Part shown: positions 343 to 389 of the stretch, one piece after another
Numbering within the stretch: the stretch's first letter is position 1
How the letters are laid out: every line of letters starts with the position of its first letter
Source: a virus
Lineage: Duplodnaviria; Heunggongvirae; Uroviricota; Caudoviricetes
Strand: one strand, 5' to 3'
Virus record (IMG/VR): IMGVR_UViG_2693429582_000026
DNA length: 15,498 nt
Translations under genes and position numbers: made by a program
The notes under the pieces: generated by a model
Seen by the model: only the letters and a program-made list of their open reading frames with translations
What the model was told of the DNA's origin: nothing
The model's database searches: none

Positions 343-389
343 TGGGCTGTAGTCCGGAAGCCTGAATGACACACGGGGACTACAGCCCA
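343..389. repeat. Perfect 13-bp inverted repeat (TGGGCTGTAGTCC / GGACTACAGCCCA) with a 21-nt spacer, upstream of the esterase start
   Basis: Arms at 343-355 and 377-389 are exact reverse complements, read directly from the sequence. Confidence 0.7.

Follow-up and report, generated by a model that had tools for sequence, protein, structure and literature searches.

What is the perfect inverted repeat that lies ahead of an esterase gene in this prophage, a site in the DNA or a structure in the RNA? Its two 13-nt arms, TGGGCTGTAGTCC (343-355) and GGACTACAGCCCA (377-389), are 100% complementary and flank a 21-nt spacer, and in an exhaustive scan allowing loops of 3-60 nt they form the longest perfect inverted repeat of the window, by which we mean the whole 15,498-bp stretch of DNA that was analysed. 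A perfect repeat of at least 13 bp arose in one of 200 dinucleotide-preserving shuffles of the whole window, and no second copy of the 13-mer is present in the window at up to one mismatch. These results bear out the preliminary description of this DNA, which had reported two arms that are exact reverse complements around a 21-nt spacer, improbable by chance and situated upstream of the esterase start; since the ATG is at 300-298 on the - strand, the repeat lies about 43-89 nt upstream of it. It had been offered there as an operator for a dimeric regulator, as an RNA stem-loop in the late transcript or as a recombination site. When folded, the leader forms a stem-loop on either strand, with -25.2 kcal/mol and z = -4.0 for a 71-nt piece of the + strand and z = -4.5 for the 141-nt - strand leader.

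The window derives from a lambdoid prophage, and its positions 250-520 are 100% identical to Enterobacteria phage PPyecE_EH1910 (LC567835), in which the esterase is annotated as yjhS/nanS-p. The first 100 aa of the product, a DUF1737/SASA esterase, match DUF1737 in Pfam (E = 6.7e-17), as is the case for nanS-p/yjhS. On the - strand, Pfam matches mark replication protein P, NinB, two antirepressors, NinG and antiterminator Q (2648-2169), and these are followed by three tRNA genes, a TerB-like moron, a DUF3927 ORF, an STnc100 sRNA, the region antisense to the sRNA AgvB, an intrinsic terminator, a 7-nt linker, the hairpin, the Shine-Dalgarno sequence (SD) and nanS-p (Table 1). On its 3' side the hairpin ends at -43 relative to the nanS-p AUG, with 32 nt of leader between it and the SD. 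The terminator is kept in all the leader classes described below, including the hairpin-less class E, and weakly resembles the 3' end of STnc100. As for the wider locus, the position of the tRNAs between Q and the moron is the arrangement found in 933W, and the TerB-like gene (1306-875) and DUF3927 ORF (875-711) occupy the place that stx has in Stx phages. Rfam also recognises the C4 antisense RNA, its a1/b1 target and isrK at 4973-5171 (-), immediately ahead of the genes for the antirepressors P22_AR/ORF6N (4920-4189) and ANT/KilAC (4117-3392), and the 3392-5171 region is a P1/P7-type C4-controlled antirepressor module inside the lambdoid nin region.

Table 1. Features of the nanS-p leader and its surroundings, in window coordinates
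Feature	Position	Strand	Details
nanS-p 5' end (yjhS-like 9-O-acetyl-N-acetylneuraminate esterase)	1..300	-	start 300-298; gene exits window
nanS-p Shine-Dalgarno GGGAGG	305..310	-	sequence; kept in classes A-D
Conserved stem-loop, very probably RNA	343..389	-	5' arm 389-377, loop 376-356 (21 nt), 3' arm 355-343
Linker CAUUUCU	390..396	-	sequence; 7 nt, A/U-rich, single-stranded; proposed endonuclease entry site
Intrinsic terminator	397..423	-	terminator scan; 9-bp stem, 4-nt loop (423-402), T-run 401-397
AgvB anti-GcvB sRNA gene	448..509	+	Rfam RF02702, 96.5 bits; antisense to late transcript
STnc100-family sRNA	510..703	-	Rfam RF02076, 142.7 bits; own terminator 542-521
Three tRNA genes (Met-CAT, Arg-TCG, Arg-TCT)	1473-1724	-	ARAGORN; between Q and moron

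The gene organisation of the agvB region has been described by Tree et al. (PMC4104026). Judging by sequence, the agvB promoter probably consists of a -35 element, TTGCGC, at 413-418 and a -10 element, TAAAAT, at 437-442, and the hairpin lies at -59 to -105 relative to the AgvB 5' end. The -35 falls within the stem-loop of the - strand terminator, a compact overlap of signals at 397-442, and the T-run of the terminator is at the same time a + strand A-tract at about -45 to -51 of agvB that resembles an UP element; this placing of a -35 within the terminator is retained where a different short sRNA gene replaces AgvB (L005-L007). The - strand RNA of 396-460, antisense to AgvB and including the terminator, resembles the 3' part of GcvB at a sub-threshold level (16.7 bits, E = 0.08), and a - strand transcript that stopped at the terminator would bear a GcvB-like GU-rich seed, UGUUGUGUUGUU, fully complementary to AgvB. 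Furthermore, a perfect 12-bp inverted repeat, GGGCATTTTTTA / TAAAAAATGCCC, is found at 499-526, where the AgvB (+) and STnc100 (-) genes converge; it spans the 3' ends of both sRNAs and joins two back-to-back terminators.

Is the 13-bp repeat itself a terminator? It had been argued not to be one, and this part of the preliminary description stands: the stem is GC-rich, but the loop measures 21 nt here and 20-28 nt in homologues, the terminator scan makes no call at the site, and no U-tract follows, the sequence 3' of the stem running CUCCAUAUCUGA on the - strand and AAGAAAUGAAAA on the + strand. The absence of a T-run after the repeat on both strands was thus correctly noted for this window, and it is on two counts, the size of the loop and the lack of a U-tract, that we reject a terminator. 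Among the classes of homologous hairpins, U-rich tails follow the stem in B and D only, with none in A and C. What had been overlooked is the genuine terminator 7 nt upstream (423-402 plus T-run), together with the antisense AgvB sRNA gene beside it. Several other identities were considered. The only tRNAs called by ARAGORN are the three of Table 1, which leaves no tRNA or tRNA remnant at the repeat, and a promoter scan found no sigma-70-like promoter between the terminator and nanS-p; the -10-like hexamers CACTAT, TATTAT and CATTAT just before CCCGG were dropped, having no accompanying -35. A leader peptide of 25 codons, from a GUG in the loop to UAAUG, is not conserved, because a 7-nt loop insertion and a different SD region in class B break its frame. 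Two long-range pairings were also set aside, a helix between the U-rich linker and the SD, present in the minimum-free-energy fold of the window and absent from the consensus fold, and a pairing of the loop with the SD/AUG region (72% complementary), which shows no covariation.

The leader is present in 347 phage records found by BLAST, mainly Stx1a, Stx2a and Stx2c phages, and for comparison we assembled representatives of these together with 80 IMG/VR loci carrying close NanS-p relatives, 12 genome loci and 120 pattern-matched loci, a total of 210 leaders with 58 distinct sequences whose mode of collection biases the sample. Four homologous hairpin classes occur among these 210 nanS-p leaders (Table 2). 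Hairpin-bearing leaders are found downstream of stx1B or stx2B in 933W, in Stx1a phages, in Shigella phage 7888 and in GER2/AU5Stx1, and 933W has its hairpin at 23092-23148, after stxB2 and before the esterase gene. Class B, the commonest, has a mid-stem U-U mismatch and often a second one (pairs 10 and 11), and hence a perfect stem is not required. The hairpin is lacking from leaders of class E (lambda-2B8-like) and class F and from one leader disrupted by ISEc8.

Table 2. Hairpin classes in homologous nanS-p leaders
Class	Representatives	Leaders	Arms (5' / 3')	Loop	Stem
A	this window, Stx1a phages	65	GGGCTGTAGTCC / GGACTACAGCCC	21 nt	perfect
B	933W, most Stx2 phages	96	GCGGGCTGTAGTC / GACTTCAGCCCGC	28 nt	mid-stem U-U mismatch
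C	Shigella phage 7888	14	GCGGGCTGCGGTTC / GGACCGTGGCCCGC	25 nt	paired, G-U wobbles
D	GER2, AU5Stx1	10	GCGGGCTGTTTTTC / GGAGGGCAGCCTGT	20 nt	paired, up to 6 G-U

Smaller variations were seen as well. Indel variants of the hairpin occur in class A (L028/L030), class B (L114) and class D (L179), the changes being a 5-nt duplication (CAGCC) in the 3' arm, an extra A that forms a bulge in the 5' arm, and a 3-nt deletion (TTC) at the junction of 5' arm and loop; all of these variants still fold, with the stem shortened or bulged. A 10-bp DNA palindrome at 308-317, CCCGGCCGGG, overlaps the first three bases of the SD and extends upstream, and it is kept in classes A, B and D and not in class C, which has CCCGGAAAGGGG; TCCGGA, where the loop of the hairpin meets the 3' arm, is a further conserved palindrome. 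Non-homologous leaders (L010 and L068-L096 of class E, L040/L093/L095 of class F, and L011) contain small hairpins of their own with a stability biased towards the sense strand, as in L011 (-16.0 vs -0.6 kcal/mol on the other strand) and class F (-10.6 vs -3.5). Class E variants keep theirs inconsistently, and we therefore did not use these convergent hairpins as evidence. The terminator that precedes the class E leader would belong to a PasD/STnc100-type sRNA, if that sRNA ends there; such an sRNA has been placed directly upstream of the esterase (preprint 10.64898/2026.05.13.724894).

The four classes have diverged enough to ask on which strand the pairing is maintained. Because a MAFFT alignment of the whole hairpin shifted class D by one column, pairs were counted in arms-only alignments in which the loop was swapped for a constant linker of 8 A, with the indel variants L028, L114 and L179 excluded. 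Relative to class A, class C shows three double compensatory pairs and three one-sided transitions, the latter all yielding G-U, and class D adds another two double changes and has as many as six G-U pairs. In the sense of the late mRNA, 89.9% of the cells are paired vs 78.2% in the antisense, with a covariation score of 0.241 vs 0.068 and with 11 double-change cells, distributed over four pairs, vs five, values that stem from few independent evolutionary events, namely three class-level divergences and minor variants. None of 500 shuffles matched the observed value for the sense strand, while for the antisense one of 500 did so for the score and none for the pairing, and once the partner columns were slid, pairing fell to 36-46% (sense) and 19-33% (antisense). 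One-sided changes break a sense pair in the rare variants L050, L052, L087 and L116.

Folding energies show the same asymmetry between the strands. With RNAfold, class D reaches -22.8 kcal/mol in the sense vs -7.0 in the antisense orientation, and class C -28.8 and -30.4 vs -24.6 and -21.4 kcal/mol. The RNAalifold consensus of whole leaders consists of the hairpin and the terminator. A covariance model built on classes A-C only, without class D, has one match in the window, at 341-391(-) with 50.8 bits and E = 9e-13, compared with 21 bits for the + strand, and it detects class D as well, solely on the sense strand. As DNA, the class D half-sites GCGGGCTGTTTTTC and ACAGGCTGCCCTCC are asymmetric, yet the RNA pairs; symmetry fails at 6 of 14 positions in class D and at three in class C, and the half-site centres are 34 bp apart, with a spacer that ranges from 20 to 28 bp across homologues. 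Thus, since the differences between classes preserve pairing on the late-mRNA (-) strand only, through compensatory and G-U changes, sequence comparison makes it very probable that the late transcript, as sense-strand RNA, folds into this hairpin, in line with the stem-loop reading of the preliminary description; a single-stranded DNA hairpin on the same strand would formally be compatible with the G-T wobbles as well. The suggestion of an operator for a dimeric regulator, which presupposes symmetry, is not supported because the class C and D half-sites are asymmetric. On a more general note, the case illustrates how asymmetry in G-U pairing can reveal which RNA strand a dyad belongs to.

How widespread is this hairpin? 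In 325 kb searched with the covariance model, there is one sense-strand copy in each of the 29 of 45 loci that bear the element, always in the nanS-p leader, and classes A-C give a weaker echo on the opposite strand. A dispersed repeat of the REP, BIME or ERIC type is excluded because the element is single-copy, once per window or locus and always in this leader. The single copy also speaks against the recombination site that had been proposed: the hairpin always accompanies the nanS-p leader, and phages that differ in their morons or sRNAs become homologous again from the terminator core, CTGCGCAACTGCG, which lies ahead of the hairpin. With the mosaic breakpoints thus placed at the terminator, the hairpin is an unlikely recombination junction. 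Among 5,426 complete E. coli genomes, 622 carry the class A leader, with 1-7 copies per genome, a range similar to the seven-to-ten nanS-p alleles reported for EDL933 (PMC8065619); identity of this leader is 99% or higher in 612 of 624 E. coli records. No annotated feature underlies the class A element in these 622 genomes. Rfam gives no gathering-level match at 343-389 and none at E up to 10, the best sub-threshold match being ES173 with 16 bits vs a threshold of 90, and the hairpin goes without mention in Tree 2014 (PMC4104026), in Sy 2020, in the nanS-p papers that were searched and in the 2026 preprint on Pas sRNAs. It thus appears to be an undescribed example of a well-known kind, a conserved RNA stem-loop in a leader or between cistrons.

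What such a stem-loop might do depends on the transcript that carries it. Expression of nanS-p rises by 1-2.4 log on induction with mitomycin C, and few genes respond more strongly to norfloxacin (PMC10462455, PMC8065619). The gene behaves as a Q-dependent late gene is expected to, and the hairpin would therefore be made on the antiterminated pR' transcript. This late transcript would start at pR', about 2 kb upstream on the - strand of the window, and, antiterminated by Q, would pass the moron (TerB-like here, stx elsewhere), the sRNA region and the terminator at 423-402, after which the hairpin of 13-16 bp would form 7 nt past the U-run of the terminator and 42 nt before the nanS-p start. 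Cleavage, either of the RNase E type in the flanking A/U-rich single strands or of the RNase III type in the stem, could then separate the upstream moron and sRNA RNA from the mRNA of nanS-p and the lysis genes. Placed at the new 5' terminus, the hairpin would protect the downstream mRNA from 5'-end-dependent attack by RNase E, and hairpin and terminator stem could also stop 3' exonucleases on the upstream moron or stx fragment.

We tentatively favour the view that the hairpin is such an intercistronic processing or stability element, a reading that falls somewhat short of being probable. The order of terminator hairpin, A/U-rich linker, stable hairpin, A/U-rich leader and RBS is typical of these elements, and it is this arrangement, together with the precedent for processing in phages, that favours a processing or stability hairpin. 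RNase III sites in lambda late RNA were reportedly described by Daniels et al. in 1988. Canonical RNase III substrates offer about 20 bp, or two helical turns, of mostly uninterrupted dsRNA, and the stem is shorter than that, with 13 bp in the window, at most 16 bp in class C and, in class B, 12-13 bp interrupted by a U-U mismatch. The late leader of an Stx phage is cut by RNase E within GUAUU, between GU and AUU (PMC7547250). This motif is found 5' of the hairpin in the linkers CGUAUUG or CGUAUUU of class B, class C and Stx1 phages; the exact motif is absent from the linker CAUUUCU of the window. No peak is listed at the hairpin site in the Hfq crosslinking data of EHEC (PMC4104026 Table S2). 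Direct masking of the RBS by the hairpin is unlikely according to the folding model, because the hairpin lies outside the ribosome footprint and the predicted SD accessibility is equal with the hairpin present or deleted. In the class E, class F and IS-disrupted leaders, which lack the hairpin, nanS-p is presumably still expressed.

Could the hairpin instead act on translation in an indirect way? It might keep CUUCCGG, made up of the 3' end of the loop and the first bases of the stem, away from the RBS; with the 5' arm missing, cleaved or bound, CUUCCGG would pair with CCGGGAG over the SD and shut off nanS-p translation. Such a switch would fit the conservation, since no part of the element is better conserved in classes A, B and D than UUCCGGA, where the loop meets the 3' arm, and CCCGGCCGGGAGG beside the SD is conserved likewise, and the loops are pyrimidine-rich in all classes. 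When the 5' arm was scrambled in silico, four of the six leaders examined lost predicted SD accessibility, among them the window (0.19 to 0.00), 933W (0.40 to 0.10) and L006 (0.40 to 0.08), but L002 was unaffected, and the test is weak because a scrambled arm is a new sequence that may itself pair. Furthermore, the CUUCCGG/CCGGGAG pairing shows no covariation, L164 and L144 alter one side only, class C differs on both sides and is left with a 4-bp CCGG match, and RNAalifold finds no long-range helix. We therefore regard a translational switch as unlikely.

Copies within a class are mostly near-identical, as in the class A records above, class E and F leaders do without the hairpin, and class B tolerates mid-stem mismatches. 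These observations would be expected if the hairpin were a near-neutral relic, for example the eroded terminator of an old moron, carried in young leaders that recombine in blocks. We consider this improbable in view of the history of the stem: while loop and flanks have strongly diverged between classes, the stem has stayed paired through five double and about ten wobble-preserving changes, and the pairing is lost to the extent given above once partner columns are slid. Besides, an eroding terminator would lose its stem along with its U-tract.

A more ambitious version of the functional readings would make the hairpin a regulatory decision point in the late transcript of Stx phages, in one form a retroregulatory or processing element that sets the stability of toxin or moron RNA relative to nanS-p and lysis RNA, in another a two-state switch between the hairpin and the CUUCCGG:SD pairing that an RNA-binding protein or an sRNA might read. 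Such a role seems rather unlikely to us.

Still less do we expect the hairpin to be an auxiliary barrier, that is, a weak second terminator or pause site that backs the terminator at 423-402 and keeps moron or sRNA transcription in the lysogen from leaking into nanS-p and the lysis genes. Leakage into holin and endolysin genes is costly to a lysogen, as is well established for lambdoid phages, and the hairpin stands 7 nt after a genuine terminator, which in class D is degenerate; U-rich stretches (CUCCUUAUUUUAC, ACCUUUUCUG) follow the hairpin in classes B and D. Neither the window, of class A, nor class C has a U-tract after the stem, however, the loops of 20-28 nt far exceed the 3-8 nt typical of intrinsic terminators, and the terminator scan is silent at the hairpin. 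Finally, a DNA site, be it an operator of a dimeric regulator for the divergent agvB promoter or for nanS-p, or a recombination or cruciform site, is suggested by the perfection of the dyad in this window, its place between two divergent genes (-59 to -105 from the AgvB 5' end) and the palindromes TCCGGA inside it and CCCGGCCGGG near the SD, but is highly improbable given that symmetry is lost in classes D and C while pairing of one strand as RNA is kept, that half-site centres lie 34 bp apart around a variable spacer, that the hairpin persists where a different sRNA gene replaces AgvB (L005-L007), and that it is single-copy with the mosaic junctions at the terminator.

Among the operator, RNA stem-loop and recombination-site readings with which we began, only the RNA stem-loop survives. 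The hairpin is a modest element of an ordinary kind that will not surprise a specialist. Its position gives it some practical interest: in 933W, in Stx1a phages and in other Stx2 phages it separates stx, or another moron, from nanS-p and the lysis genes, and EHEC and EPEC also harbour many stx-negative prophages with the hairpin in this place. If late-transcript processing or stability is under its control, it would affect the survival of toxin and esterase mRNA vs lysis mRNA, and it would then be a cheap and testable target for mutation; should it be a decision point, toxin yield would be tuned against the timing of lysis. Even if it has no measurable effect, the hairpin remains a useful marker of the nanS-p leader module.

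The closest known systems lie among leader and intercistronic hairpins. Like hp1-type hairpins in the ompA 5' UTR and intercistronic processing hairpins, ours is a stable stem-loop in an untranslated leader, set amid A/U-rich single strands in a long polycistronic transcript, and it lies upstream of the RBS without occluding it (3' end at -43, predicted SD accessibility unchanged); it differs in its unusually large loop of 20-28 nt, and its membership of this group is putative, the hairpin being known from sequence alone. In rpsO-pnp, the rpsO terminator is followed by a hairpin in the pnp leader that is cleaved by RNase III. The present locus shares with it the succession of terminator, short linker, long leader hairpin and next gene under read-through transcription, and lambda late RNA provides a known case of processing in a lambdoid late transcript; in contrast to these RNase III sites, its stem of 13-16 bp is short for RNase III, and there is no sequence similarity. 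REP and BIME elements resemble it as GC-rich stems between genes of an operon, and like them it could block 3'-to-5' decay of upstream RNA, here that of stx or the moron, but REP elements are dispersed and multi-copy, whereas the hairpin occurs once per prophage, only before nanS-p, and has no REP consensus. Lastly, AgvB/AsxR (RF02702, RF02703) and STnc100/PasD (RF02076) come from the same region between moron and nanS-p in lambdoid prophages of EHEC and EPEC; neither model covers the hairpin, which is downstream of the terminator and belongs to neither sRNA.
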